A stretch of DNA of 64,000 nt from Bugula neritina (taxonomy: Eukaryota; Animalia; Bryozoa). The notes below the pieces were generated by a model that did no database searches, was not told where the DNA came from, and saw only the letters and a list, made by a program, of their open reading frames with translations. Shown in pieces: positions 46,633 through 64,000 of this stretch. The DNA is taken from assembly GCA_964035545.1 (NCBI GenBank), contig OZ037766.1:14560722-14624721 (forward strand), in the 5' to 3' direction. Both the position numbers and the translations under genes were made by a program. Within the stretch, counting starts at the first letter, position 1, and each line of letters begins with the position of its first letter.

Positions 46633-49600
46633 ATGTCAGGAATTCTGTATTTGGCTGTCGTGTGCTGGATAGCAGTCCTTTCTACAGGGGAGATCCTTAA
46701 TGAGGATCAGGTATGTAAACAGTTCATTTTCTCTCTATGTTCCAGTTGTTGAAGTACATTCTTTTATAATAAATCTTTTCGTAACTTTTTCTTTATAACG
46801 CAGCTGAAACTATTTTAATAAATAAATTTACACACGATAACATTTGTTCAAACTTCAAAGGTAATACAGAATAATGTTTATTATAAACTTGCTAGCCAGC
46901 TAGTTGCTACCTACGTTTCTATTCTGTTCAATATTGTCCATGATTCATTTGCATGTAAGCTTTGTAAATGTAAGCTCGAGTGGAAATTTTGCTCGCAGAT
47001 AGCAACTCAAAATTATTATAATACATACTATTAAGTTACACACTACATTACGCTTTGATGAGTGCATGGCATAAATTTTTCATGCTAAGAAATAGTTATG
47101 TAGGTGATTCATTTTAAGTAAACGTCATAGTCATTTTTAATTATAGCTTGATTCTTCACTTTTTAATGACCAGTCTTTCACAGTATCACAATTACATATT
47201 TACATGCAAAGTTGAATCTGTAATTTTAAGTATCAGTTGCAATCATAAAACAATAAACCAAGCTATTGTACCAACACTTGCAAACTTGTGTTATGTTTTA
47301 ATTTGTATTTTGTTAACGCAGCGCTATGAAAACTTTTGCGACTCAAATCCATGTGGAGATGGAAACACTTGTTTCAACACACCTGTGGGATATAAATGCT
47401 TTTGCAGGCCAGGAGATGGTCGTCATGACTGCATGAAAGGTAGGCCTAAAACATGGCAAAAAGTAAGATCTAAATTTGATTCTCCAAATTGTGATGATGT
47501 AGTTTTTGCTATGAAATGGCAGTGCCACACTTTTAAATTGCCGAGTTTAAATTTAAAAATTGAGTTATAGACTTATGGATGAATTTGATTTGTGATTTAT
47601 TGAAAGCCTATATATTTTTACAACATTATGTTAGAAGTATGCAAAAGTGTGACATTAAAGTGAAAAACAAAGGTGATCTCCTATAACAGATTTATTTTAA
47701 ACAGTATACTCTAAAAAATAATTTTATGTTGAATTTATAAAATATGTAAAAACTTTAGAATAATAAAGTTATTCATTTTGATTACAGAAGAAACATGCAT
47801 GCTATACAATCATACTGGAGTATGCCGTAAGGAATGCTTCCAAGAAGAGACTGGTTTTTTCATCCAGCATTTGGGTGGTAAATTTATGGATTTGAAAGTG
47901 TACAACAGTGATGGCAATGTCACGGTGAAAGACAGAGTACCTGTAGTAGACATCAAGGAACAAGACCCTTGTATGTGGCAGCTGTCGGGCAAGCCCAACT
48001 GCTGCTGTAAGTAAGACTGTCTCAAAATGCGATGTAGATTTGCTAATACACTAAAGGGAGGGTAAGATACTAGTTTGCAGCCATTGAGTGCTCAGTACTA
48101 TCACATGGACTCCAACAATTAATTTTAGAACACAACTAAATAACAACATGTTATGTATGCTGTAAGATGTCTGCAAATTTCAATTTAAAAGCAGTTGTGG
48201 CCTAATGTTGAGATGTGTCTGCCTAAAAGCATACTGTGTAGCAATACTTTTTATTGAGAAAATCGTTCTGCTGTTTTATTACCAAAAATTCTCAAAATTT
48301 TTGAAAGACATAATCGAAAGTACTAAACACAGCACAAGGTCAATGGTTTGGACACCAGTAAAAACTATTGGTGATGTTAGGTCATTAGCTAGGGCATTCC
48401 GTTCCAATTAATTTTTTGTCACAATGGAAAACAAGTTCCTGGCCGTTTTAAAAAAATAATCTTTTCATCAGGGGTTGTTACAGGAATGGTGACTATAAAC
48501 CCACGTGAGTCTTTTATCGTAAAATGAAAAAAATAAGTTATTTGACCTTGAAAATTCCAATTTGAATGCCATGAGTCAACCGGGAATAAGTCACAAGGGA
48601 AAGAGTTTTGGTGTGCTGCATCTCTCTGCAAACTTCTTTTTCAATATGTAAGTGGGCACAAAGCTCAACAGTGCCAAGACAGTTCAGACTTCTGCTTAGC
48701 TATTCAAAAAATGCGCAAATAATTATAACACTCTAAAGATAAACTTGTTGGCAGCTCTATTGGGCCAAGCAAAATGACGATGACGAGACCTTCTGTTGAA
48801 GGATTTTGCTAACGGGAAATGTTTGACGTTGATTTTAGTGCCTACTGAAGATGTTGATATTGGATGCTTTGCATACGGAAGTCTGGTACGCACCAAGAAC
48901 CGAGGGACACTAGCAATTGAAGATGTGAGAACTGGTGACCTTGTAGAGAGCATAACTCCAGAAGGAGAAGTTACATATTCTGATGTGGTTATGTTGATGC
49001 ATCAGGTATACTAACTAGCTGGAACAAACAATGAAATTACAGCATTTTTATATAAATTTATAAAATATTAGCTAGGAACTTTTAGTATAATAAGCTTATT
49101 TACTAGTTTTAAAAGTGATTTTAGCTGACCATGGTTTAAATTAATTAATATTACTTTTTAAAGCAAAATTAGCTATTTATTGATTTAAACAATTAGTGAA
49201 GCTTATCTGATAAAACTGATAGTATATTAAGCAGATTGAAAACTTGTCGGGGTTAAAACTTCAAACTGTTAGAATTTTGTTGACTGTAACATTTTTACTA
49301 GATTTTAATAATAATTAAGCATTGATTAACCAATGTATTATGCCAATAGGAGCCTGATAGAACCGAGAGCATGATAGCCATCACTACGGAGGGTAGCAGC
49401 AAGCAACCCCTCACATTAACACGGGACCACTTAGTCTATGTTAGCAACGGTGATGGTAAATGGAGTTATTTGTTTGCTGAGAAAACCAAACCTGGCATGC
49501 TTATTAAGAGGGTTTTGGGTTATCAGGACGTTTCCATTGAGGCCATTAAATCAGTAGAAAGGTAAATTTATATTTTAGGTTGATGCAATTGTATAACTGT

Positions 49601-50149
49601 TGATTTGTTATGCCTACTGTAATTGGGTAGTGTGTGGACATTTGATGTATATTATATACTCAGAAAGCCTGGCATGAGAAGACAAATCTGAACTAATGTC
49701 AAAATTAAATCTTTCCCCAGCGTTAATAACTGTACCATAACTATATTTTGGAATAATATTATGAATGCAATATTTTTAGAATTGTATACCAGTTATTGTA
49801 ACTATTAGGATAACTGTGTTCTTAGTTTGTTTTCATGCCATGTAAATATATTTTTAGTAAAACTGTGAAGGGGTTGTATGCTCCTGTGACCACCACAGGC
49901 AATATAGTGGTGGACTCAATTATGGCTAGTTGCTATGGAAACCATCCTGATCACTATTTGTCACACCAAGTGTTTGCTCCAATCAGATTGGCATACAAGT
50001 GGGCACCCTGGATCTATAATGGCGACTCTGTGGCTGAAGATGGGAGCCACCCGTATGTTTCCTTTCTGAACAAGTACATGAGAACTCTCACAGGCTACAC
50101 TCTTGTCTTGTCTCAGCATAGGCTAGATGGCATGACTGTCTACCCTTGA
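46633..50149 (+). CDS. Secreted Hedgehog-related (Hog-domain) autoprocessing protein: SP, EGF, 6-Cys module, Hint, sterol-recognition region
   Basis: Six phase-consistent exons: 46633-46710 (signal peptide MSGILYLAVVCWIAVLSTG), 47322-47439 (EGF CDSNPCGDGNTCFNTPVGYKCFC), 47788-48006, 48839-49005 (DIG|CFAYGSLV...IEDVRTGDLV), 49350-49561 (LTLTRDHLVY), 49858-50149 (GLYAPVTTTGNIVVDSIMASCY; HQVFAPIRL; GSHPYVSFL). Confidence 0.88.
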
Positions 50150-50777: not shown

Positions 50778-51230
50778 AGTAGTAGGAGGTGGATGGTCCT
50801 GGCTCACTCTTCTTCTACCGTCGAGTCTTCGACTCGCCAGTGTCAGAAGAGTGAGCCAGGACGCATCCACCTCCTACTACTCTATTAGTAATATTATAAA
50901 AAAAATAGTGTAATATTATAAAAAAGTAGTGTAATATTATAAATTTTATTTAAAAAAATTTTTTTAGGGTGGATGGTCCTGGCTCACAATACGATACTAT
51001 TAGTAAGATAATAAGAGCTTCGACTCGCCAGTGTCAGAAGAGCGATCCAGGACGCATCCACCTGCTACTATTCTATTAGTAATATTATAAAAAAGTAGTG
51101 TAATATTATAAAAAAGTAGTGTAATATTATAAATTTTATTTAGAAAAATATTTTTTTAAAAATAAGAAAAAAATATTTTTAGGGTGGATGGTTCTAGCTC
51201 ACAATACGATACTAATAGTAAGATAATAAA
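50778..51230. repeat. Polinton terminal region: terminal hairpin plus ~2.3 copies of a 180-215-bp subterminal repeat
   Basis: GGTGGATGGT(C/T)CT(G/A)GCTCAC occurs at ~50788, ~50968 and ~51183. CTTCGACTCGCCAGTGTCAGAAGAG...GGACGCATCCACCT occurs twice, and GTAATATTATAAAAAAGTAGT is repeated. Confidence 0.9.
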
Positions 51231-51263: not shown

Positions 51264-51458
51264 TTAAACGTTATAACTTGGAAATGTTGGTAAAGATTCA
51301 GTAGATTCGGTTATACCTCCATCATTCGTTGATAAAACTAATTTATTACCAACTGCTCCTTGTAATTTAGGAATAGCGTAATTATTTATATTATTTATTG
51401 TAATAAGATCTGAAATATTTATACCCGTTTCTACAATATTACCATCACTCGAAAGCAT
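51264..51458 (-). CDS. Polinton small ORF with fibre-shaft-like repeats; possibly the broken 3' end of the upstream gene
   Basis: Internal repeat LMLSSDGNIVET / LVLSTNDGGITES. It lacks the TAAATG start motif. Confidence 0.4.
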   Translation of the reverse strand: MLSSDGNIVETGINISDLITINNINNYAIPKLQGAVGNKLVLSTNDGGITESTESLPTFPSYNV

Positions 51459-51472
51459 TAATAATAATTTTT

Positions 51473-51994
51473 TTAATTAGTTAAACTATTATAATAAAGT
51501 TTTAAATATACGTAATCAAAAGGTAGTGCATCAGTAGCGAATTCACTCGGTGTATTAACAAGAATTACGTCATTAGGTTTATAACTCGGATAATTACTCG
51601 AAAGAGCTATTGTAAACGAAAAATTATTATTAGCGTTAACGGTTTTATTAATATTTATTTTATTATACGGAACATTATGTTCGGCACCGCTAATAGTATA
51701 AAATATATTTTCTTTAGACTCGTCAAATGGATTTACGCTATTACGAATATGTAAACCTAATTTTTTATCAGTCCAATATAATTCTTTCGTTTTATTATTA
51801 GGTGAACTTTCGTTATAAAATTGTATTAACGCGTGCGTTATTTCTATAGATTTATTGACTAAATAATCATTAATTAAATCTACCGTAAAGCTATTAATAT
51901 CTTCGTAATAATAAAATTCGTGTTTAGGTATAATACTCGTAATATACGCTTTATTAGTCGTTATATTGACTTTACTAAATTTATAGATATTCAT
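51473..51994 (-). CDS. Polinton hypothetical protein, paralogue A (putative fibre/spike)
   Basis: 173-aa ORF, clearly paralogous to 51991-52509 (KELYWTDKKLGLHIRNS, ALPFDYVYLKLYYN). Confidence 0.75.
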   Translation of the reverse strand: MNIYKFSKVNITTNKAYITSIIPKHEFYYYEDINSFTVDLINDYLVNKSIEITHALIQFYNESSPNNKTKELYWTDKKLGLHIRNSVNPFDESKENIFYTISGAEHNVPYNKININKTVNANNNFSFTIALSSNYPSYKPNDVILVNTPSEFATDALPFDYVYLKLYYNSLTN

Positions 51995-52509
51995 TTATAA
52001 TTATAATAAAGTTTTATTAATACGTAATGAAAAGGTAACGCCGCAGTGGTTATTTCACTAGCGGGAGTATCGGTTAAAATTACGTCGCTAGGTTTATGAC
52101 TAGGATAAGTTTTTGATAATACCATTGTTAATTTAAAATTTTTATTAGCTTCAATAATTTTATTAGCGTTTATTTCGCTAAACGGAAGATTATGTTCGCC
52201 ACCGCTTATATCATAAAAAGTATTTTCATTGGCTCCACTGAATATTTCAGCGCTATTTCTAACGTGTAAGCCTATTCGCTTATCAGTCCAATAAAGTTCT
52301 TTAGTATTATGAGCTTGTTCACCGTAAAATTGTACTAATATATTCGTTATTTCAATCGGTTCATCGATTAAAAAATCTTTAACTAACGTAGCAATAAATC
52401 CTTCGGGATGATACGTAAATTCTGATGGAATTATGATCTTTGTAATATATGGTTTTTCATTTATTATAGTGGCTTTAGCCGAATTTCCAAAAATATAAAC
52501 TGAAGTCAT
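51991..52509 (-). CDS. Polinton hypothetical protein, paralogue B (putative fibre/spike)
   Basis: 172-aa ORF (KELYWTDKRIGLHVRNS, ALPFHYVLIKLYYN). Overlaps paralogue A by 4 nt. Confidence 0.75.
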   Translation of the reverse strand: MTSVYIFGNSAKATIINEKPYITKIIIPSEFTYHPEGFIATLVKDFLIDEPIEITNILVQFYGEQAHNTKELYWTDKRIGLHVRNSAEIFSGANENTFYDISGGEHNLPFSEINANKIIEANKNFKLTMVLSKTYPSHKPSDVILTDTPASEITTAALPFHYVLIKLYYNYK

Positions 52510-52923
52510 TTATATAAGTAATTTATTTATAATTAATTGAGGTGACTCGTGTTTAGACATTTCTTTAAGCCAATATAAACACAAGTGTCCGCATATAACG
52601 GTACCGAATTTTTGTACTCGTTCCGTGTTATAAAATATAGGTGGTTTTAAATATTTCATTATTTCTAGCGGTGGGTGAAGTCCAAAACTATCAAAATAAT
52701 ATTTTTTATTTCCGTTTTTATACCAAGCTACCCAATGAGTACCGTTACCCATTAAATCGTCTAAATTTAATATACCGCATTCTTTTTTACGCGGTTTATC
52801 GGGTAAATCGTTTCTTGAAAATACTCCTCTAAAAAATGGTATTTTTAACTTTTTAATCGTAAACTCTAATTCAATATTTGATAGAGCTTTATTCGGTAAT
52901 TTTATATTTTTTATTTTAATCAT
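52510..52923 (-). CDS. Adenain-like cysteine protease (Polinton PRO)
   Basis: GTHWVAW (His), YFDSFG (Asp), Q...CGHLC (oxyanion Gln and catalytic Cys). Confidence 0.93.
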   Translation of the reverse strand: MIKIKNIKLPNKALSNIELEFTIKKLKIPFFRGVFSRNDLPDKPRKKECGILNLDDLMGNGTHWVAWYKNGNKKYYFDSFGLHPPLEIMKYLKPPIFYNTERVQKFGTVICGHLCLYWLKEMSKHESPQLIINKLLI

Positions 52924-55900
52924 TTATATAACCGTAAGGGACTGTAGTTATACCGTCTTCGAGTATATTTCTTTTATCATCTTCGGCCGACAGAGCTACT
53001 TTATTTATAGTTTCAGCGTACATCGTATGCTTATGACTTCTTAACACGTTCATCGTTCTAAATTGATTTCGTCGCGTTAATAAACACTCTTTATAATCAT
53101 CAAATGTTATGCGATTATCACGAGTTGTTTTATTAATACCCTTACATTTTTTTTCTTCTATATCATCCATCTTGTAAGAATATAATTTAGCTCTTAGGCC
53201 TACAAATTCTGTAATTTGTTTACCGCCGGCTTCATCCTTGAATTTTCCTATTACTTTTTTATTTTTACCGGTTGGTATACCCGATTTATGATTTTTTGGA
53301 TAATTACTCGTGTCAAATTTATTTTCGATATCCGGTAATATATCTTTATAAAAATCTTCAGTTTGCACGTGATACATTAAACTATCCGTATCCGTAAATA
53401 ATAATTGCGCTTTATTATTATATTTATGTTTAATATACTCGTAATGAAAGTCGTACATTAGAGTTTTACTAATGTCTAAAATTGCGGCTCCCAAATATAC
53501 GGGTTTATCAAACTTTAATTTAGTTACGTTCATATGAACGGCTATTAAATTTTCGGAAAATATAGTGAAGCTTTTAAAGTTTGGTTGATTAGTAAACTTT
53601 TTAGCTTCGCTTTCGCTAGTAACCAATTTAACGTTAACTCTATTACGAATATCTTCCATCGTTTTACCGAACACGGAATTATTCATTAGCTTAAAGAAAT
53701 CTTTTTCAAAATCGCTTCGAGCTAAAGTTCTTAGTTCGGTATTTAATTTTATATATTTTTTTAGCTTATTCGATTCATTAAAGGTTATACCTCTATGAAT
53801 TTTCGTTAATTTTAAGCCGTACATAAGGCATTGTTTTAACGCCTCGTAATGTATAATATAATTTTTTTTATTATTTAAGTTTGGCACTAACTTTTCTACT
53901 TTGTTAATCGTTAACCTTTCGGGGCAAAATGGATAATCTTTATGCGAGTCGTGTAACTCTTTAGAATATTCTAAGTCTACTTCCAAGAAGCTAGGCGGAA
54001 AATTTAAACTTTTTTCCAAGTTTTTACATCGCTTTTCAGTCATCCACTTAAAATTACCCGTAGGTAAATTTTTGGACATAGCCCAACCGTATAAATTATT
54101 AGCGTCTAAATAAGTAATATAACTGCTAGGTTCGCTAGCGTTATAATTTTCCATATACTTATTATTGGCTTTAGCGTGTCTATGACTGATCATACTTACA
54201 CCACCCCTAATAGCCTTTTCAAAGAAAAGTAGTTGGTTAACGTCGGTAATTGGATCCAACTTTAATTCGGTAGTTTTAAGCATAGCGTCCCAACTTAAAC
54301 CCGGGGCCGTATAGTACCAAGCGGGATCTAATTTGTAATATTTTAAACACACGTTTCTAAAGTTTTCAAAAACGTCGGCTAAATGTAATACATCAACTTT
54401 CATATACAAGTCGTGATATTCTTTAAACGTTTTCATATTAAATTCTCGCCAAACGTTTTGAGCGTGTATATAATCTTCTTCCGAAATATTTTGCTCGGTT
54501 AAGCTCGAATAAAACTTTTCTTTAGGTGGTAAAGACGTTTCATTCAACACGCTTAGATTATTAAAATAGTCATACGGAAATACTCCTTTTCTTAATACCA
54601 AGTCTAATTGTTTTTCCTTATAATATTCACCTAAGTGTTTAAAGTCGTCGCGTTTTAAATTCGCCACTAAACTCGCTAAATTAGAACTCATAAATTTATA
54701 CGAGTCTAAAAAGCGAATTTCACGGCTAACTTTAATTTTTTCACCTTCTTTATTGGTAAATTCGTCTACTAATAATTTTTTACTAAAAGATATATATTTT
54801 TCTTCGGTATTAGGTATACACGAAGGTTCACCACCTAAATTTTTAATAAATAAGTGGGCGTCATAACCCGATAAGTTGTGTATAAACACCGGATAAAATT
54901 TTGGAATTTTATAATTTAAATTACAATTTTTATGAGCCGCTCCTCTATAGTCTCCAGTCAAGTGGCAGTGATCTCTCACTCTGTCATTACTCAATTTTTC
55001 TTCGCATATATAACAATTTTCGGCTAATTCGAAAGACTTTTGCTCGTCAATCGTAATTCGCATAGTTTTAGCGAATTTATGTTTTTTATAAATATTTTTA
55101 ATGTCGAGTTCTAATAGTCTTATAAATTGTTCGCCAATATCTTCGTCTTCAGTTTCTTTAGTATAACTTCTATAATTACACTCGCCGGTAACGCTTACTA
55201 TATAATATCTGAAACCCGACGGTTCGTGTTGCTGATATTGGTTAGTATAACTTTCTTTAAAATTAGGATTACAGCCTTGTATAGGCTTTGTAAAACATTC
55301 AAAATCCGCGTATACCACAAACGGTACTCTCATACTACGACAATAATGACTAGATTGAAATTTTATTTTATCTTCTAATTTTGGAAATGTCGTAGTCACG
55401 CTATCATTTTTTAAGCACCAATCTTGATGCTTTTTTAATGATTCGTTAGATCGAAACGAATTCATACAATTTACGCAAATATGTTTAGCGTTAACGCGTT
55501 TATTTATTTGCGAACCGAGTAATTTATTTAAATTTTTAATATACGTATAATGATTTTTTTCGCCATCGGTTATATAAAGTAAATTTATAATTTTATTCTG
55601 ACCGCTAGTTTTTCTCCATAAATTTATCGTATTGCCGTTCCACATAAATACATTAATTCCTATTGAGGAATTAACTTTTTCGAAAGCGTCAATGGATTCT
55701 TTCGTAGCCGGAAATTCCACTCCTTCCCACGATAATTTATTAACGTGCTCTTTATAATTACTAATTCTTTCAACATTTTTATTAACCGGATAAACTCCCA
55801 TTAAAATGGCCCACATAAAGCATTTATCGTCTTTATTTTTAGGATTTATTACGGCCTTTTTCGTTTTAATTTCTTTCGGAAGATCAATCCACGATGATCC

Positions 55901-56581
55901 GTTAAGAGGTTGATATTTATTAATATTAATTTCCATTTTTTTAATGGAATTAAACGTCCAACTACTTCCTTTAGCGTTTAACGAAGCAAAATTTTCTTTT
56001 ATACGTTCAATTATTTCATTGTATATTTCATCAACATTCGTAGAAGATAATATAATTTCAACGTTTGATGTAAATGGCATAGTTTCTATAATAATTTCTC
56101 CGGTACTTATATTATGCTTTTTTACTTTGCAATATAAAAATATTTTAGCTTTTATAGTAGGTTTTAATAATTCTAGTACGTTTAGTTTTACTAGTTTACA
56201 AAACGAATTTATATCGTATCCGGGTAAACCTTTAATTTCATAAGTTTGAAACCAACCATTAGCGGCTTGTTCTTTAAGCTTAGGCTGATTATATAAAGCC
56301 ATAATTTTATCCTTAATCGGATTTACAATTTTTGCAATCGGCTTTACAATACCCTTAACCCATTTTTTTATATTACGCGTAGTTTGCGTAAATATTTCTC
56401 GCATAATTTTTTTCGCGGGTATAGGTATTAACGGGGCTTGTCCTATATTTGGAACGGGTTCGTCCATAGGCGATAATAGCCGTATAAGTTCGGCTTTTCT
56501 TAATCGAGAATATCGTTTCAATCCTCTTTCTTTAGCTAAAGCTTTTAAAGCTTTTACGGTAATTTTTGTATTGAACTCCAT
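52916..56581 (-). CDS. Protein-primed family B DNA polymerase (pPolB) with N-terminal accessory domains
   Basis: Exo motifs YADFE, HNLSGYD and YMKVDV. Pol motifs YLDANNLYGWAM, KLMNNSVFGK and TDTDS. Accessory parts are an N-terminal HEH-like helix pair, an OTU-like DKCFMWA...HYTYI, a C2H2-like finger and an endonuclease-VII-like insert (CYIC...DHCHLTGDYRGAAHKNCN). Confidence 0.97.
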   Translation of the reverse strand: MEFNTKITVKALKALAKERGLKRYSRLRKAELIRLLSPMDEPVPNIGQAPLIPIPAKKIMREIFTQTTRNIKKWVKGIVKPIAKIVNPIKDKIMALYNQPKLKEQAANGWFQTYEIKGLPGYDINSFCKLVKLNVLELLKPTIKAKIFLYCKVKKHNISTGEIIIETMPFTSNVEIILSSTNVDEIYNEIIERIKENFASLNAKGSSWTFNSIKKMEININKYQPLNGSSWIDLPKEIKTKKAVINPKNKDDKCFMWAILMGVYPVNKNVERISNYKEHVNKLSWEGVEFPATKESIDAFEKVNSSIGINVFMWNGNTINLWRKTSGQNKIINLLYITDGEKNHYTYIKNLNKLLGSQINKRVNAKHICVNCMNSFRSNESLKKHQDWCLKNDSVTTTFPKLEDKIKFQSSHYCRSMRVPFVVYADFECFTKPIQGCNPNFKESYTNQYQQHEPSGFRYYIVSVTGECNYRSYTKETEDEDIGEQFIRLLELDIKNIYKKHKFAKTMRITIDEQKSFELAENCYICEEKLSNDRVRDHCHLTGDYRGAAHKNCNLNYKIPKFYPVFIHNLSGYDAHLFIKNLGGEPSCIPNTEEKYISFSKKLLVDEFTNKEGEKIKVSREIRFLDSYKFMSSNLASLVANLKRDDFKHLGEYYKEKQLDLVLRKGVFPYDYFNNLSVLNETSLPPKEKFYSSLTEQNISEEDYIHAQNVWREFNMKTFKEYHDLYMKVDVLHLADVFENFRNVCLKYYKLDPAWYYTAPGLSWDAMLKTTELKLDPITDVNQLLFFEKAIRGGVSMISHRHAKANNKYMENYNASEPSSYITYLDANNLYGWAMSKNLPTGNFKWMTEKRCKNLEKSLNFPPSFLEVDLEYSKELHDSHKDYPFCPERLTINKVEKLVPNLNNKKNYIIHYEALKQCLMYGLKLTKIHRGITFNESNKLKKYIKLNTELRTLARSDFEKDFFKLMNNSVFGKTMEDIRNRVNVKLVTSESEAKKFTNQPNFKSFTIFSENLIAVHMNVTKLKFDKPVYLGAAILDISKTLMYDFHYEYIKHKYNNKAQLLFTDTDSLMYHVQTEDFYKDILPDIENKFDTSNYPKNHKSGIPTGKNKKVIGKFKDEAGGKQITEFVGLRAKLYSYKMDDIEEKKCKGINKTTRDNRITFDDYKECLLTRRNQFRTMNVLRSHKHTMYAETINKVALSAEDDKRNILEDGITTVPYGYIND

Positions 56582-56664
56582 TTATATAGTAAAAAAATCT
56601 TTAAACTATAAAATCAATTTTTTAATATTATTACTTATGTAAAATAAGTAATAATACTGAGAAA

Positions 56665-56883
56665 CTAACGTTCTTCTTTTAGTTTATAAGCTTCGCGTTT
56701 TAAAATACTTTTTATATAAAAATATCTATCAATGTTAGGAATTTGTTTTCTCGTTCTAAAATTAATTTCTTTAAGAGATATATTACTAATTACCGGCATA
56801 TATAAATATTCGAGTAACGGCGTATATTTTTTTTGTTCCGATTGCGCGATTAATTTATCGAGTAATTCAACGGTAAGATCCAT
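56665..56883 (-). CDS. Polinton small hypothetical protein (likely start at MDLTVELL)
   Basis: Part of the 56665-56913 ORF. The internal ATG is preceded by TATAAT, a variant of the gene-start motif. Confidence 0.5.
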   Translation of the reverse strand: MDLTVELLDKLIAQSEQKKYTPLLEYLYMPVISNISLKEINFRTRKQIPNIDRYFYIKSILKREAYKLKEER

Positions 56884-56925
56884 ATTATAAAATAATAAAA
56901 TAATAAAAATCATTTTTTTATATAA

Positions 56926-57405
56926 ATGGACTTTCGACGAGAAAAATTAGAACTCTTAAACGATGAAATTATTAAATTAGAAAACGAATACGAACAAAAA
57001 CTTAATCATTTTAATTGGTTATCGAAATCGTTAAAAATAATTTCGGGATTATGCGGTACAACGAATTTAATATGCGGCGTTATTATTACGGCGTTATTAA
57101 ACGCTAACGTTACTAAACAAACGTTATTACCATTATCTATAATAGTAAGTATAATGAGTGTAATTACTACTTCTATTTCTTCTCAAGATACTAAATTAAT
57201 TAAATCTACGTTAATGTATTTAGATATATATACCTTTATAAAAGATTCTAAATTAGAAATTAATTCTATGTTGTCGAAATTTTTAAGCGACGCTCATATA
57301 GACGAAGAAGAATACGACGCTATAACCGAAAAATATAAAGATATTAATAGCGTAATATCGGATAAAAAAAGCGATATAATAATCGCTCGTAACAACATTT
57401 GTTAA
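56926..57405 (+). CDS. Polinton membrane protein with two hydrophobic helices and coiled coil (the type labelled gasdermin-like in adintoviruses)
   Basis: Two hydrophobic segments and a C-terminal SKFLSDAHIDEEEY. Starts at TATATAAATG. The gasdermin similarity is recalled, not tested. Confidence 0.65.
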   Translation: MDFRREKLELLNDEIIKLENEYEQKLNHFNWLSKSLKIISGLCGTTNLICGVIITALLNANVTKQTLLPLSIIVSIMSVITTSISSQDTKLIKSTLMYLDIYTFIKDSKLEINSMLSKFLSDAHIDEEEYDAITEKYKDINSVISDKKSDIIIARNNIC

Positions 57406-57478
57406 TTACTTGCAAAATGCAATTAATTAAAAAAGGGAGTTCAATACAAAAATATTCGTTTATTTATATACGTTTTCT

Positions 57479-57883
57479 TTAACTATAATATAAAGCGTCA
57501 TTTCGTCTTTTTTCTATTTCGTCTTCGGCGTATTTTAGTTTAGTAAAGAATGACGGTATTCTAGCCACCGCGTAATTCATTAAACCTACGTTAAGTTCTT
57601 GAATTATTTCTTTAGTCTTGTAAATAGTTTTTATTTTTAATTTTCCATCATTTTCTTTATAAATAATTTCTTTTTTATTAGTATAAACGCGTTCTTCGAA
57701 CACTCCTCGTTCGTTAGACGGATTAGTCATTTCGTCTAATATATTAAATTTTTTATATATAATTATTTCTTTTAAATCACCGCTTTCATACATTTGTTTT
57801 TCGTATTCGGAAGTTTTATATATCGTTTCGGTAATTGGGGTGCCGTCGAGGCTTTTATAAGTAATTACTGTTGGTTCAACCAT
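57479..57883 (-). CDS. Polinton hypothetical protein
   Basis: 134-aa ORF with the TATATAAATG start motif and short internal E(I/T)IYK repeats. Confidence 0.65.
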   Translation of the reverse strand: MVEPTVITYKSLDGTPITETIYKTSEYEKQMYESGDLKEIIIYKKFNILDEMTNPSNERGVFEERVYTNKKEIIYKENDGKLKIKTIYKTKEIIQELNVGLMNYAVARIPSFFTKLKYAEDEIEKRRNDALYYS

Positions 57884-57903
57884 TTATATACTTATTCTTT
57901 AAA

Positions 57904-58473
57904 CTATAATAGCATGCTTAAAAGAGGAATGTTTTTAAACGGACTATTCGGACCTAAAATTAAACCTTCGCCTTTTATATAGCTAGAACCCTGTTTTAAA
58001 TATAAACCGTTACCTTTCATTAGATTAGACGACGCGACTGGTTTTAAAGTAATAGAACCGTTTGAATTTGGTTCTACGGAACATACGCATCCGCCTCTTT
58101 TCAAATAAAGACCTTTACCTTTAATAGCTCTTTCGACTCCGGCACTAGCGGCTCCGGAAAGTACACCCGGTATAATAGTTTTTAATAGCGTAGGTATTAC
58201 TCTCGTAGCTATACCCAATAGAGCTCCTAAAAATCCTCCGCTCATTGACGCGTTAGTTTTTACTAACGACGGAGACATTTCGAGCGTTATATTTTTTTTA
58301 TTCGCGTTTAACGCTTTTAAAATATTATCATTTTGCGTTTTCGTAACGACTAGTTTATCGTTTCCGCTTTCGAGAGGTAATTTAATAACGCAACCCTTAC
58401 CGCTTCTATAAGCGTTCATTATTTTTTGTTTTTGCGCCTGCGGCACATTTCCTATAATTTCGCAATAACCCAT
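57904..58473 (-). CDS. Polinton virion core/membrane-lytic precursor protein
   Basis: MSGG|FLGALLGIATRVIPTLLK amphipathic segment and repeated KGxG|LYLK motifs. Confidence 0.7.
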   Translation of the reverse strand: MGYCEIIGNVPQAQKQKIMNAYRSGKGCVIKLPLESGNDKLVVTKTQNDNILKALNANKKNITLEMSPSLVKTNASMSGGFLGALLGIATRVIPTLLKTIIPGVLSGAASAGVERAIKGKGLYLKRGGCVCSVEPNSNGSITLKPVASSNLMKGNGLYLKQGSSYIKGEGLILGPNSPFKNIPLLSMLL

Positions 58474-58485
58474 TTATATAATACA

Positions 58486-59244
58486 TTAAACTTCTCTTAA
58501 ATGAAATCTTATTGAAAGTTGTTCGCCGCTAAGATCTAATAAATTACCTTTTTGATCCGTTACCGTAACGGTTAACGTCTTAATATATTTAACGTGAACG
58601 GGTAAGTATATTAAATTATGAGGTTTTTCTATTATTTTATATCCAGGACTAACGCTCGGAAAAAATGAATAGATAACGGGTTTATAAGTACCATCGATAT
58701 AACTTCCGTTGATACAATCAACTTGTACGTGTATAGCGTTTATATTTAAAATATTTACTATGTTCGTAGCTTCGATATATGGTTGATTATATATCGCCGC
58801 GTCAAAACCTAAAACGTCTCTTAAAGAATCTTCAACGTTAAAATCTATTCGATAATTTGGTTTTAATTTAAGTATAATTCTAAAAGTTACTTTATTAGCT
58901 TGCAAAGTAATACCGTTTCTATTACCCCCCTCTTTTACTATTTCGTCTTGAATAGCTTCTTCTAGTTGATCTAATTCGTACACTCCGACTGGTAACGAAA
59001 CTAAATGCCACGTAGTACCACCGTCTTTAGACCATCTATAGGAATTTCTATCGGTACTAATGTTTGGAAAAGAATAAAACGTATCCAAACTAATAAGACA
59101 CATTTCGTATTTTTTATTTTTATTTAACTCTATAGGCGGATTAAGTTGAGTAATTATTCTCGTTTTAGTATCGGTAACTCCTATAGTCATCGTTTGTTTA
59201 GAGGCCGTATTATCGGCAATTTCTCTTAAAATTCTATTATCCAT
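58486..59244 (-). CDS. Minor capsid protein (penton, single jelly-roll)
   Basis: 252 aa, beta-rich, directly downstream of the MCP. Carries IYSFFPSVSPGYKIIEKPHNLIYLPV and DQKGNLLDLSGEQLSIRFHLR, typical of Polinton pentons. Confidence 0.85.
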   Translation of the reverse strand: MDNRILREIADNTASKQTMTIGVTDTKTRIITQLNPPIELNKNKKYEMCLISLDTFYSFPNISTDRNSYRWSKDGGTTWHLVSLPVGVYELDQLEEAIQDEIVKEGGNRNGITLQANKVTFRIILKLKPNYRIDFNVEDSLRDVLGFDAAIYNQPYIEATNIVNILNINAIHVQVDCINGSYIDGTYKPVIYSFFPSVSPGYKIIEKPHNLIYLPVHVKYIKTLTVTVTDQKGNLLDLSGEQLSIRFHLREV

Positions 59245-60519
59245 TTATATAACTTTTAAATTATTTCCATCGGAACCGAGAGACATGGTTTTATCGGATA
59301 GAATTAACGCGTAAGCTTGAGTATCAGCCGGCACGTTTTGACTAAACTGAACTCTCAATTGAATATCGGCTACGCTATTCTTAAGAGCTTCGCTTTGCTT
59401 ACTAACGTCTATTACGAACAAAGCGTAAAGATCTTTATATTCCGAAGGTAATACGTTCGAATAAGCGATTAGTTCGTTTATACCGTAATATTCTCCGCAA
59501 AATTTAGAAGCGTCTCCGTAAACTCTACTAAACTTCATTTTAGCGAAATCTATATCGTAATCAACTTCGGGATACCGCTCACTGTTTAGCATCGCGTATA
59601 CGCTTTTAACGTTAACGTGATCGAATACGGCTGGATTAGTCGTTTGACTTTCATTCTTACCCGTTTGAAAACCTACAATAATATATTTAGGTTTTTCCGT
59701 ATCACCTCTAGAACCCAAACGCCACGTAAAGTTTGTAGTTTGCGGCACCGCGATACTATCACACCACCTAGACCTATAAATTATGGGTAGCTGCGTCTTA
59801 CTCTCTATAATTTTATAGAGTTTATTTTTCATTTCAAAACTAGGCGTTACGTGAGGCATCCACCACGACACTTTATCCAACGTTATTTTTCCCGCGTCTA
59901 CACCGTTTGCTCTAAATATAGCGTTATCGTTAGTATCGCGTACGAGAGTGAGTTGATGTTTTATACCGTACAAAACTTTTTCGTAATCGTCGGCGAACCC
60001 AAACAAATGTCTGAGATCCACTTTAATACTAAAAGTACCTTTAGGATCGGGCTTTTGTATAATATAAATTTGACGCGCGTTAAAACCTAAATTAGCGGCG
60101 GCAGCGGCTGCGGTAGTATCTTTTGACCACAACTGATTAAGACCTCTCGACTTGCCGTAGTCGTCGGGATAAGTTAGTAAACCCATCATAGTCGAAGCGT
60201 GTCCGGGATTATTTATATATTCCAAGTCGTGTCCGTCGAGTTGATATCTAACGCTTTTAAACAAATAAGCCATACCGTTATTCGTCAACGTTACTAAGTC
60301 AGCGTCGGCGTATGCGGTTCCATCGGCTTTAGTTAGACGACCTTCGATAATCAAATAACTTTTACTAGGCTGAACGTACAAATCTTGTTGATTAATAACT
60401 ATTCTAATTTCACCGGGATTATCCAAATTCGTTCCCGTTACGGGTTCGTATTCGTGCACTTGATCGCGTTCTACGCTCGTATCGAGTACAATTTTTTGTG
60501 TAATGTTCAGAGAGTCCAT
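59245..60519 (-). CDS. Major capsid protein (double jelly-roll)
   Basis: 424 aa with PSKSYLIIEG, NNGMAYLFKSVRYQL, KPKYIIVGFQT, LNSERYP and LFVIDVSKQ motifs typical of Polinton MCPs. Confidence 0.9.
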   Translation of the reverse strand: MDSLNITQKIVLDTSVERDQVHEYEPVTGTNLDNPGEIRIVINQQDLYVQPSKSYLIIEGRLTKADGTAYADADLVTLTNNGMAYLFKSVRYQLDGHDLEYINNPGHASTMMGLLTYPDDYGKSRGLNQLWSKDTTAAAAAANLGFNARQIYIIQKPDPKGTFSIKVDLRHLFGFADDYEKVLYGIKHQLTLVRDTNDNAIFRANGVDAGKITLDKVSWWMPHVTPSFEMKNKLYKIIESKTQLPIIYRSRWCDSIAVPQTTNFTWRLGSRGDTEKPKYIIVGFQTGKNESQTTNPAVFDHVNVKSVYAMLNSERYPEVDYDIDFAKMKFSRVYGDASKFCGEYYGINELIAYSNVLPSEYKDLYALFVIDVSKQSEALKNSVADIQLRVQFSQNVPADTQAYALILSDKTMSLGSDGNNLKVI

Positions 60520-60540
60520 TTATTATAGTAAAATAATTTC

Positions 60541-60900
60541 TTAATAAGCTATAGCTTGCCCGCTTCCTTCTAAAATATTGGCAATAGCGTTTTCTCCCTC
60601 GCTAAGCGATCTTAATATATTTTGCCTTTGAATATCATTAAGAGGTTGACTAAGACTTTTTAATATTTTTTGTCGTTTAGTATCATTAAGAGGTACTCGA
60701 TTTAATCTTTTCTTTCGATTTTTTATCGCGTTAACAATTTTTTCACCGGCCGCGGTACCCGCTTTGGCTATAGCCTTTTTACCTAATTCTCTTACGCTGG
60801 AATTACTAGCTAATTTAGTTACTACATTTTTAATGGTGTCGAATATTCCACCACCGGCGTAGTGTCTTTGTAATCGTTGTCTTTTATCGTAAACGTACAT
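60541..60900 (-). CDS. Basic virion core/membrane-active precursor protein
   Basis: YAGGG|IFDTIKNVVTKLA amphipathic helix, a basic patch, the repeat PLNDTKRQKILKSLS/PLNDIQRQNILRSLS, and a C-terminal LEGSG. Confidence 0.7.
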   Translation of the reverse strand: MYVYDKRQRLQRHYAGGGIFDTIKNVVTKLASNSSVRELGKKAIAKAGTAAGEKIVNAIKNRKKRLNRVPLNDTKRQKILKSLSQPLNDIQRQNILRSLSEGENAIANILEGSGQAIAY

Positions 60901-60903
60901 TTA

Positions 60904-61716
60904 TTATAGACGTAAAAGAATGTTTTCGTATTGGTTACGAGTAATTTCTTTCATTCTAAGTAATTCGTCTAATATAGCTACAATTTCGTTTCGTACTCCT
61001 GTATTTCCGGCTTTAGCGCTAGAAATTAAAAGTTGAAGTCGTTCTACTAAAGCGTCAGGATCCGACGATAAATATACTACTCCCTCACCCCTTTTAGCTT
61101 TTTTACTATCGGCGAGTTTCGCTCTCCGAGGATATAATTGCTCCCAAATAGGTCTAACAATACGTTTCCATTTATCACTATTTTTATCTACGGGACCGCG
61201 TTTACTTTGATATATAGCCCCGCTATTATCGAGTATACTTTTATAATTTTCATAATCATCGTCATTATATCCTACAGGCGTTTTACGCGTTAAAAGACTT
61301 AAAAGTCCTCTAGTTGCCAAATATTCTTTACCATCAAAAATTATTTTACCATCGTTAAAATTTATAGGCTTAGTACCTATAACGTGTCTATTACCATCCC
61401 ACTTTACGTTATAAGCTCCGGGTTCTAAGCCGGCTAAAGCGTTTTGAGTATATTCGTCTAAATTTATAACTCCATCCGTTATCGCTTGCAAAGGAGTATA
61501 GTTTTGTACGACTGAATTTTGCAGCTGTTTTAACGCTTCAGTCGTTTGAGCTTGAGAAGCGATTACGGGTTCAAAATATTTTTCTTGAGCTATTACGGCA
61601 TTTAATTCTCGCTCGCGTTCTCGTTTAAAATTCTCTTTTATTCTATTCTTTCGAGAAATAAAATCTTGTACGATTTTATCTCTTTTTATAGGATCGTGAA
61701 TCTTTAAGTAACTCAT
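60904..61716 (-). CDS. Conserved Polinton uncharacterised protein (PZ-like)
   Basis: 270 aa with TRGLLSLLT...DDDYENYKSIL and a C-terminal GEG|VVYLSSDPDALVERLQLLISSAKAGNTGVRNEIVAILDEL module recurrent in Polintons. Confidence 0.7.
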   Translation of the reverse strand: MSYLKIHDPIKRDKIVQDFISRKNRIKENFKRERERELNAVIAQEKYFEPVIASQAQTTEALKQLQNSVVQNYTPLQAITDGVINLDEYTQNALAGLEPGAYNVKWDGNRHVIGTKPINFNDGKIIFDGKEYLATRGLLSLLTRKTPVGYNDDDYENYKSILDNSGAIYQSKRGPVDKNSDKWKRIVRPIWEQLYPRRAKLADSKKAKRGEGVVYLSSDPDALVERLQLLISSAKAGNTGVRNEIVAILDELLRMKEITRNQYENILLRL

Positions 61717-61724
61717 TTATATAA

Positions 61725-61826
61725 ACACAAATTTGTGTCTACATTTGTGTCCACTGGACACAATTTGTGTCTACTTTTGTGTCCACTGGACACAATTTGT
61801 GTCCACTTTTGTGTCTAGTGTCCACT
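61725..61826. repeat. Palindromic 32-bp tandem repeat array in the integrase-PZ intergenic gap
   Basis: ACACAAATTTGTGT palindrome followed by (TTTGTGTCTACWTTTGTGTCCACTGGACACAA) x2 and a partial third copy. Confidence 0.9.
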
Positions 61827-63189
61827 ATAATCGTTCTAAAACGTTTAAATTTACCCAAGAGTTTTGAGAATCGGGATAACCCAACCATTTTACTAAAGCC
61901 TTTTTACCTTTCTTTTTAATTACGCGCTCTATTCTATAAATTTCTTGACTCGTCTTTTGTAATTCCTGTTCGTAAAAGGTTCCTTGAATTTCTTCTCCTC
62001 CCGAGTCGGTTAATTTATAAGTAGTCGGATTAGTATATAATATTTTACTTATAGTAAACACTTCCTCCGTCCATCTAACGGTATAACCTTTTTCAAACGT
62101 TCGTTTTTTACGAGGTATACGCACTCTATCACCTATAGTAAATTTAGGTTTAGAAGGCGCTGGTAAGTTTGGATATAATTTTACGCGTACTTTATTTTCA
62201 TTAGAAGGATTACTAGCTTCAATCGGTGTCATTCCAATAGACGAATGTTTAGTCTCGTTATACCGTTTTACTAAATCTTTTAGTACGTCTATATATTTAT
62301 AAGTATTATTCGCCGAAAAATATTTAAACATTCGCTCTTTCATTGTTCTATTCCACCTCTCTACTACGCTAGACTTTTCTTCATTTTCCGTAGAATATAA
62401 TTCTATTAAGGACTTTACGTCTTTATTATAAAACTCTTTTCCCTTGTCAACCCATAAACGTTGCGGCTTACGATGAGTAAAAATAGTTTTTAAAGCTAAA
62501 GCCGTCGCTTTACCAGTCTTATTTTTTAAAGGTACTATCCAACCGTATTTTGAAAACACGTCTATTACCGTTAATAAATATTTATAACCGTTATTAAATT
62601 TAGCGAATTCAGTCATATCAACCAAGTCGGCCGCCCAAATATTATCAATACCCGATACCCAAACTCGTCTTTTACGAAATTTTTTTTGTACGGGTTTATG
62701 TAATTCTTCGGCTAACTCGTTCGTCCATCCCCATCCTAAACGCTTTTTCGCTCCTATTATTGCTGAAGCAAAACGACTGTGTCGCTGTTCGGAGGGCGTA
62801 GGATTAGGTATAGCTTTCAGTTCGTCTAGCATATTTTTATCACATATTTCGTTTCTAGTTTTAGTATCTTTATTAAGCGCGTAACATACGTCGTGTCTCA
62901 TGGCTATAGCGTCGTCTCGATCTACCGGTTTACTCCATTCTTTAGGAGTCATGTCGTCATTTAAACGTTTATTTAATTTAGTACCGGGTCCTAAAAAATT
63001 ATGACCGGGGTAATGCAATTCAAAGGGTAAATTGTTTATTAAATTATTCGCTAAACCCGACCCAACAAATGTAGTTTTTTTACATCCGCATTGACCGCAA
63101 TTACCGTAACCCATTAGTCTATTATTTTTACTTACTCTCTTTTCGTAATTGAGAGTTTTCGTTTTAATTTTACACTTACAACAATACAT
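61825..63189 (-). CDS. Retroviral-type (rve) integrase fused to an N-terminal Zn ribbon and a parvovirus-like PLA2, with a C-terminal chromodomain
   Basis: Zn ribbon CCKC...CGQC. PLA2 motifs HNFLGPGT...AMRHDVCY...D. DDE motifs WAADL, VDKGKEF and VVERWNRT. Chromodomain YRIERVIKKKGKKALVKWLGYPDSQNSWV. Confidence 0.93.
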   Translation of the reverse strand: MYCCKCKIKTKTLNYEKRVSKNNRLMGYGNCGQCGCKKTTFVGSGLANNLINNLPFELHYPGHNFLGPGTKLNKRLNDDMTPKEWSKPVDRDDAIAMRHDVCYALNKDTKTRNEICDKNMLDELKAIPNPTPSEQRHSRFASAIIGAKKRLGWGWTNELAEELHKPVQKKFRKRRVWVSGIDNIWAADLVDMTEFAKFNNGYKYLLTVIDVFSKYGWIVPLKNKTGKATALALKTIFTHRKPQRLWVDKGKEFYNKDVKSLIELYSTENEEKSSVVERWNRTMKERMFKYFSANNTYKYIDVLKDLVKRYNETKHSSIGMTPIEASNPSNENKVRVKLYPNLPAPSKPKFTIGDRVRIPRKKRTFEKGYTVRWTEEVFTISKILYTNPTTYKLTDSGGEEIQGTFYEQELQKTSQEIYRIERVIKKKGKKALVKWLGYPDSQNSWVNLNVLERL

Positions 63190-63204
63190 TTATTATAATA
63201 AATG
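63187..63204. promoter_or_regulatory. Perfect 18-bp palindrome CATTTATTATAATAAATG containing the start codons of integrase (-) and ATPase (+)
   Basis: The sequence is self-complementary and each strand reads TATAATAAATG. The promoter role is inferred. Confidence 0.6.
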
Positions 63205-63960
63205 GAAATAGAAAATCTTTCGTGGAAAAACGAAATTAATCGTAATAATAATCCTTTACTTCCTAAAAGCATAAGAGGTCTTATCGTTGGAAAGTCTGGA
63301 TGCGGTAAAACTACGTTACTTTGTAACTTACTATTACAACCTAATTGGCTCGATTACGATAAACTTATGATTTACGGTAAAAGTCTTTCTCAACCCGAAT
63401 ATATAAATATGAGGAAGGCTTTCGAACGTAAATTAACTAAAGAAGAAATTTTAAATTTTTTTAAAAATAACGAAGCGATAGTAAATTCGGGTATAAACGT
63501 AACTCGTGTTTTAAAAAATAGTAGGGGTAACGGTAACATAGACGCTGAATTTATAGAATCTAGTGACGACGTTTATGACCCTAGCGAATTAGACGCTAGT
63601 AATAAAAATTTAATAATATTCGATGATTTAATGTTGGAAAAACAAAAAACTTGCGAAAGTTATTACGTAAGAGGACGACATAATAACGTCGATTGCTTTT
63701 ATTTGTCGCAAAATTATTTTAAGCTGCCTAGAAATACTATTCGAGAAAACGCTAATTTTATTTGCTTATTTCCTCAAGACGGAAAAAACTTAAATCATAT
63801 ATATCAAGATCACATAAACGGAGATTTAACGTTAAACGAATTTAAAAACTTTTGTTATAAAGGATGGCAAAAACCTCACGGCTTTATTACTTTAGATCTT
63901 TCTTCCTCAAAAAATAATGGGAGGTATAGACACGGATTAGACGAATTTTATATACCGTAA
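63202..63960 (+). CDS. A32/FtsK-like DNA packaging ATPase
   Basis: Walker A GKSGCGKT, Walker B LIIFDD, arginine finger RGRH and SQ motif. Confidence 0.93.
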   Translation: MEIENLSWKNEINRNNNPLLPKSIRGLIVGKSGCGKTTLLCNLLLQPNWLDYDKLMIYGKSLSQPEYINMRKAFERKLTKEEILNFFKNNEAIVNSGINVTRVLKNSRGNGNIDAEFIESSDDVYDPSELDASNKNLIIFDDLMLEKQKTCESYYVRGRHNNVDCFYLSQNYFKLPRNTIRENANFICLFPQDGKNLNHIYQDHINGDLTLNEFKNFCYKGWQKPHGFITLDLSSSKNNGRYRHGLDEFYIP

Positions 63961-63963
63961 TAA

Positions 63964-64000
63964 ATGAGTGTTTATAAATTCGGAGGAAGCGGAAAAACGG
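63964..64000 (+). CDS. Start of the next Polinton ORF (MSVYKFGGSGKT...), truncated by the window
   Basis: TAATAAATG start directly after the ATPase stop. The frame is open to the window end. Confidence 0.55.
   Translation, partial: MSVYKFGGSGKT

Follow-up and report, generated by a model that had tools for sequence, protein, structure and literature searches.

The DNA analysed here is a stretch of 64,000 nucleotides from the bryozoan Bugula neritina (assembly GCA_964035545.1, contig OZ037766.1, positions 14,560,722 to 14,624,721; hereafter the window), in which a Maverick/Polinton element lies within the animal chromosome from about position 50780 to the window end at 64000; the window covers the left end and left part of the element, and its right arm lies beyond. 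The fourteen gene starts studied in this element all begin ATAAATG, and this start motif is real and not a product of chance. It heads the polymerase, integrase, protease, ATPase and capsid genes alike. The best explanation we can offer, and one on which we are evenly divided, is that (TATA)TAAATG is the whole core promoter of these genes and that the enzyme reading it is the post-replicative RNA polymerase of a large DNA virus infecting the same cell, not host RNA polymerase II (Pol II). Judged from sequence, dependence on such a helper is plausible, and the helper would belong to the Nucleocytoviricota, either to a pox-like or to another lineage.

The unbiased set of starts consists of the thirteen ATG open reading frames (ORFs) of at least 100 aa in the element, and a fourteenth start lies at the window edge. 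A first-pass annotation of this DNA had listed fourteen sites, and all are present with the words it gave: TATATAAATG at eight, TATAATAAATG at four, TTATAAATG at 51994 and TAATAAATG at 63964, with A, T, A and A at positions -4 to -1 in 14/14. The motif is strongly enriched at true starts over internal ATGs and shuffled controls, the comparison on which that annotation had staked its promoter proposal: TAA precedes the ATG of 13/13 ORFs of at least 100 aa versus 10/241 other ATGs in the element (Fisher p 5e-16; the start at 63964 is among the ten), and when the 10, 15 or 25 nt just before the ATG are shuffled (20,000 trials), the means are 1.2–1.6 and the maximum is 8/14. The 50.3 kb host part of the window has no TATATAAATG, TATAATAAATG or TAATAAATG, and a TAAATG opens an ORF of 100 codons in 0/54 cases there versus 13/23 in the element. 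A TATA lies within 8 nt of the ATG in 13/14 starts. The motif is kept within the last codons of the upstream gene at two starts, 51994 and 52923 (in the latter these are polymerase codons), and is equally strict at the divergent or isolated starts 56926, 63189 and 63202. The scarcity of TAAATG inside genes (5 versus 13 expected) was set aside as evidence because TpG is low throughout the element (observed/expected, o/e, 0.57). We note that a full TATAATAAATG copy inside a gene at 52460(-) opens only nine codons, and that a 64-aa ORF at 51264-51458(-), for which no homologue was found, starts TATTAATG. The features of the element in the window are these:

50780..50882, no strand: left end, an inverted repeat of about 103 bp with first letters AGTAGT, then partial subterminal repeats to about 51230
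51473..52000, minus: 173-aa ORF, TTATAAATG start at 51994; a 54% identical paralogue of its 172-aa neighbour
51991..52516, minus: 172-aa ORF, TATATAAATG start at 52509, the motif's TAA being the protease stop
52510..52930, minus: adenain-like protease, TATATAAATG start at 52923; Pfam Peptidase_C5 E 0.003, under the cut-off
52916..56588, minus: 1221-aa ORF, presumed B-family DNA polymerase, TATATAAATG start at 56581
56665..56883, minus: 72-aa gene, starts TTATAATATG, with TATA and without TAAATG; four homologues at 78-91%
56919..57405, plus: 159-aa ORF, TATATAAATG start at 56926, without an upstream stop
57479..57890, minus: 134-aa gene, TATATAAATG start at 57883; nine homologues
57904..58480, minus: 189-aa conserved gene, TATATAAATG start at 58473; presumably a virion core protein
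58486..59251, minus: 252-aa conserved gene, likely minor capsid protein, TATATAAATG start at 59244, the TAA being the capsid stop; no Pfam match
59245..60527, minus: double jelly-roll major capsid protein, TATAATAAATG start at 60519; Pfam DJR-like_dom E 2.6e-57
60541..60908, minus: 119-aa ORF, TATAATAAATG start at 60900, the TAA being the second one past the upstream stop
60904..61723, minus: 270-aa conserved gene, DUF8207-like, TATATAAATG start at 61716
61730..61825, no strand: a 32-bp palindromic repeat in three copies, separating the integrase stop from the 61716 start; fold z -6.15
61825..63189, minus: integrase, with DUF5679, PLA2-like, rve (6e-9) and chromo domains in a single frame, TATAATAAATG start at 63189
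63187..63204, no strand: 18-bp perfect palindrome CATTTATTATAATAAATG, containing both divergent start codons, 12 nt apart
63202..63960, plus: A32-like packaging ATPase, TATAATAAATG start at 63202; Pfam Pox_A32 E 2e-8
63958..64000, plus: gene at the window edge, TAATAAATG start at 63964, leaving the window after 12 codons

The Maverick/Polinton core is present by Pfam in the form of the rve integrase, A32-type ATPase and double jelly-roll capsid. We take the 1221-aa ORF to be a B-family polymerase from familiar motifs recognised in its translation; it matched no polymerase family in Pfam, only Rho_N and Endonuclease_7.

Related loci were fetched with an ATPase alignment built from 48 of the 120 homologues among the matches listed, and comprised 80 of 447 confirmed metagenome loci, 16 viral and 3 genome loci; the 85 with at least 50% ATPase identity were used and 14 distant ones left out. 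They supply 216 distinct starts whose N-termini can be aligned with window proteins, 82 in clade A and 134 in others. Clade A is defined by its contig series, and 14 of its full-length ATPases form one branch in a quick tree; it is counted as one lineage because there are probably few hosts behind it. TAAATG stands at 66/82 clade A starts (shuffles 7 ± 3, maximum 15) versus 2/134 of the others; the recurrence in related Polintons that the annotation proposed to check holds in clade A and not elsewhere, where a T and a longer A-run stand instead: T-A(2-7)-ATG is found at 81 of these 134 starts, against 28 ± 5 in shuffles and 52/1518 internal ATGs. The family trait is a T plus an A-run running into the ATG in GC-poor surroundings, and exact TAAATG is lineage-specific, being found in two lineages. 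An approximately unbiased test with 25/57 rows (p-AU 0.22) neither establishes nor rejects a shared origin of TAAATG in clade A and the window. TATA is not enriched in clade A (21/82 starts, shuffles 16 ± 3).

The integrase and ATPase genes start head to head with their ATGs 12 nt apart in the window, and in 37 related loci this gap is 7–45 nt (median 25, 8% GC; another four pairs, whose first ATGs overlap, were excluded). Such gaps leave little room for ordinary Pol II promoters, and a Pol II promoter of the integrase would have to sit in the ATPase gene; in 50 ATPase genes, the opening 150 nt contain no antisense TATAWA (0 in 7500 nt) and show no extra conservation of 4-fold sites. Nor can the motif's TATA act as the -30 box of the gene that it heads: the N-termini are conserved, aligning from residue 1, and second methionines are far in (residue 19–255) or absent. 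In three loci, L180, L181 and L194, the integrase-side and ATPase start codons are just 7 nt apart (CATTTATTAAATG). A scan of viral contigs for the junction palindrome gave mostly chance matches, with two divergent starts at 1/120 loci and one start at 13.

In our judgement it is rather unlikely that the element is transcribed by host Pol II in the nucleus with no helper, the motif being a compact TBP/initiator site or giving very short leaders, possibly with an element-encoded factor. The element does integrate in the nucleus, TATATAAA matches the canonical TATA box (PMC5294985), expression of coral polintovirus genes has been reported (PMC11131425), and two of the four expression runs described below contain related low-depth contigs, one of them across the divergent junction. 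An A at -3, which likewise suits translation initiation in animals, is present in 93% of the 134 starts outside clade A. Yet a TATA at -7 would place the start site inside coding sequence whose N-termini are conserved, the divergent spacers shrink to 7 nt with no upstream TATA in the opposite gene, and it is T that stands at -3 in 14/14 window and 66/82 clade A starts. There is no TBP or TFIIB Pfam match in 13 window ORFs or 63 selected ORFs of relatives. The polyadenylation-type word AATAAA is undepleted in genes and absent at most gene ends, which also speaks against Pol II: it occurs 41 times on window coding strands versus 32 expected (16 of them in the polymerase gene) and 77 times versus 70 expected in 83 ORFs of relatives, and is found at 5/13 gene ends in the window and 38/118 in relatives (shuffles 29 ± 4), counts which have no host-gene control and weigh little. 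Transcription by RNA polymerase III was rejected in view of the many T runs within genes.

The expression data are assembled contigs of four runs, X1–X4, guessed to be RNA, and give neither start sites nor strand. Contigs of X1 and X2, which are one sample, cover 30/30 bins at high summed depth, while those of X3 and X4 cover 27 and 21 bins at depth of at most 13. Over 58400-64000 X1 and X2 show flat high depth with one dominant variant, and their depth could reflect free element DNA or a multi-copy family.

A second alternative, which we consider improbable, is that the motif acts in translation: ribosomes would read long transcripts arising at the integrase/ATPase junction by terminating and reinitiating, with an in-frame TAA to insulate each start. 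The TAA is indeed the upstream stop at 2/14 starts and a second, doubled stop at two more, head-to-tail gene gaps in relatives are -7 to 50 nt, and the majority of genes are oriented outward from the central junction. On the other side, the motif is no less strict at the divergent and isolated starts, and an upstream ORF ends at -3 or -6 in only 8/66 clade A TAAATG starts (an undercount where copies are broken), so the annotation's remark that stop-start coupling explains only some starts stands; the TATA at -8 to -4 would also be left without explanation. A spliced-leader version does not fit because there is no AG acceptor beside the ATG.

We give similarly little credence to a third, that a pox-like polymerase or specificity factor is encoded by the element itself or by a larger sister element and reads TAAAT in the cytoplasm. 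In yeast virus-like elements a TAAAN initiator is used by a two-subunit polymerase of their own (PMC6211774), and the right arm of our element lies outside the window. However, the annotation's statement that no RNA polymerase is visible in this part of the element survives a Pfam scan: no RNA polymerase, TBP or TFIIB family is matched by any of the 13 window ORFs or of the 49 + 14 ORFs selected from related loci, some of which are 13–15 kb long. Predicted folds of the 134-aa and 270-aa proteins also give no polymerase- or transcription-factor-like match; the former has no clear structural match at all (best Z 6.5), and the sole Foldseek match of the latter is a Cotesia bracovirus DUF8207 protein (E 2e-9). 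Finally, that the motif is a by-product of AT richness and genome compaction, as the 27–36% GC of the element and 8% GC of its spacers might suggest, is largely refuted and very improbable, since composition-matched shuffles reach at most 8/14 in the window and 15/82 in clade A, where 66 are observed.

The helper-read promoter is supported by the motif itself, its presence on all gene classes, the 7–45 nt GC-poor divergent gaps, the T at -3 and the lack of a visible polymerase. Among its closest counterparts are the poxvirus initiators. In vaccinia, TAAAT with a G after it covers the start codon in late promoters, and the intermediate promoters have TAAA (PMC11980589); slippage at vaccinia initiators, as at the TAAAN of yeast virus-like elements, gives a 5' poly(A) (PMC6211774). 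The word and its place over the start codon are the same in the element, as are AT-rich, T-leaning upstream sequences (here -17 to -11), and relatives show a longer A-run (PMC11980589; PMC6211774; PMC4542343). The element differs in that the motif, known here from sequence alone, is found on all classes of gene in a small element that integrates and shows no polymerase of its own, that a fixed TATA stands upstream, and that the T ten bases upstream is weak. African swine fever virus (ASFV) offers another likeness: transcription of its late genes begins at TA(+1)TA, the leaders having a median length of 9 nt, and the TATA of the element would give leaders of 4–7 nt, but ASFV does not fix TAA before the ATG (PMC7163114), and TATA is unenriched in clade A. 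Mimivirus and Sputnik have a hairpin after most stop codons. The element differs, as only 1/12 window gene ends, that of the integrase, folds well and the median z is near 0 in relatives, and hairpins after stops were rejected as a general rule. The integrase end folds with z below -2 in 4/23 related loci and is a candidate terminator, origin or packaging site.

The first-pass annotation had pointed to poxviruses in particular, and this part of its proposal is not supported. Giant-virus-like contigs share the start context, with TAAATG at 9/16, 6/16 and 6/16 ORF starts of L010, L008 and L070, rates that are inflated because these contigs were picked by the motif in the palindrome scan; L070 encodes a capsid of nucleocytoplasmic large DNA virus (NCLDV) type and L008 is labelled a giant-virus metagenome-assembled genome (MAG). 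Moreover, the ASFV-type TATA is inside the word, and in most relatives the form is T-A(3-6)-ATG. The label 'poxvirus' is therefore too specific, and 'Nucleocytoviricota post-replicative type' is a fair one. What remains of that proposal is a circumstantial case for a helper-style initiator, made up of the vaccinia-like position, divergent starts too close for usual Pol II promoters and the lack of a visible polymerase. L010 is IMGVR_UViG_3300037507_002651, a giant-virus-like contig of 152 kb whose starts were counted in 20 kb; it is possibly iridovirus- or marseillevirus-like. Scans of viral contigs with single proteins found nothing, and the capsid alignments were too diverse for use as queries.

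As a system the element resembles mavirus, an integrating virus of 15–20 kb with an rve integrase, a protein-primed polymerase and one late-type motif on its genes; in mavirus genes of all classes carry this motif, and it is that of the helper, Cafeteria roenbergensis virus (CroV) (10.1101/068312). By this analogy the element likely works as mavirus does with CroV, although its motif is another, its genes form a Maverick-type set and its host is an animal. It is not filed as a member of the Lavidaviridae, its gene set being Maverick-like and its capsid having DJR-like_dom as its only Pfam match and no solved relative by sequence. Beta-type adintoviruses have the full core gene set that the element appears to have, and the polymerase of the element does not match the archetypal Pfam family, as is described for the Beta-type B-family polymerase (PMC8502044; PMC8097293). 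Polinton-like viruses (PLVs) adjoining the mavpol2 capsid clade were found in entomopoxvirus occlusion bodies and proposed to be poxvirus hyperparasites; two of these, AHEV_PLV1 and CBEV_PLV1, are animal-associated Polinton relatives, but come from occlusion bodies and are not chromosomal Mavericks (PMC11296320).

If the helper-read promoter is correct, an integrated copy would stay mostly silent until a large DNA virus infects the cell. The late polymerase of that virus would then start in the AAA of the motif (or at the TATA, as in ASFV) and yield a nearly leaderless mRNA with a 5' end made A-rich by slippage; with a start in the AAA, the T at -3 would never reach the ribosome. The element would then replicate and be packaged as a satellite, like mavirus. 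We infer all three of these, the start site, the leaderless A-rich mRNA and the satellite multiplication.

Several points weigh against this explanation. No start site, leader or helper virus has been seen, the expression data being contigs only, and none of the 20 loose ends looked at out of 61 is a poly(A) end at a start, although contigs cannot reveal starts anyway. The divergent junction is spanned by contigs of X4 (63124-63382, depth 2.1) and X1 (63050-63260). Should these runs be RNA, the contigs would fit leaderless mRNA slightly less well than overlapping long leaders or DNA; should they be DNA, the contigs have no meaning here. The T ten bases upstream that is typical of vaccinia (-13 here) is found in just 8/14 window starts and 49% of clade A starts, and A, not T, is usual at -3 outside clade A, as given above. 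The 72-aa gene, a real gene with four homologues, has the TATA at its TTATAATATG start and lacks TAAATG, which makes the count 14/15 once it is included. In ordinary samples, expression is reported for about half of 49 coral polintoviruses (PMC11131425), a point against the view that animal Polintons in general depend strictly on a helper. The AATAAA tests lack a host-gene control and the right arm of the element is beyond the window. Lastly, a cytoplasmic polymerase would need an unexplained step to reach a chromosomal copy; for mavirus, entry of a late factor into the nucleus was proposed (10.1101/068312).

Several other features of the element and its relatives deserve mention. CpG o/e is 0.36 in the host part and 2.08 in the element, the change being located at the left end of the element, and TpG o/e is 1.26 and 0.57, respectively; the CpG o/e of the related loci checked is 0.14–1.41, in all cases lower. 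This profile, the reverse of the host's, suggests that the element arrived not long ago or is subject to its own mutational bias. The left-end repeat at 50780-50882 is a single long inverted repeat that could fold into a terminal hairpin, and is followed by partial copies of the same repeat. Directly left of the insertion are host exons with EGF and Hint domains by Pfam (47166-50149), belonging to a hedgehog-related gene. The PLA2-like gene and the integrase, one frame in the window, are separate ORFs in most relatives (for example L121, L123 and L217). Relatives also carry DUF2738 (L121:11498-12148 and L201:988-1755) and, in clade A, a matrixin-like metalloprotease as cargo (L151, L190 and L194). 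Two Polinton relatives, L217 and L218, are inside bacterial MAGs and are probably mis-binned eukaryotic or viral DNA.

Sharing of a helper's motif was already known in mavirus, and helper dependence had been suggested for animal Polintons, from host ranges (PMC8097293) and from entomopoxvirus co-packaging (PMC11296320), without promoter evidence in the accessible text of either; activation of adintoviruses by an iridovirus, a giant virus, was raised only as a possibility (PMC8097293). No description of a start motif in animal Polintons was found in the literature searched, which mostly excluded subscription papers. In the accessible texts the word 'promoter' is absent from PMC11296320, PMC8502044, PMC10120064 and PMC11131425 and appears twice, in unrelated contexts, in PMC8097293, and 'motif' is absent from the main text of PMC11296320. 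A fixed initiator on all genes makes helper dependence of animal Polintons directly testable. If it is real, chromosomal Mavericks point to yet-unseen large DNA viruses in their hosts, and provirophage-style defence may extend into animals. More tentatively than for the promoter itself, we suggest that animal Mavericks of this group may live as endogenous satellites of large DNA viruses, poxvirus-like or of another kind, with the helper's post-replicative initiator on every gene; lineages would switch between TAAATG and the longer A-run as they track their helpers, and the chromosomal copies would form an inducible antiviral reserve like that of the protist provirophages.

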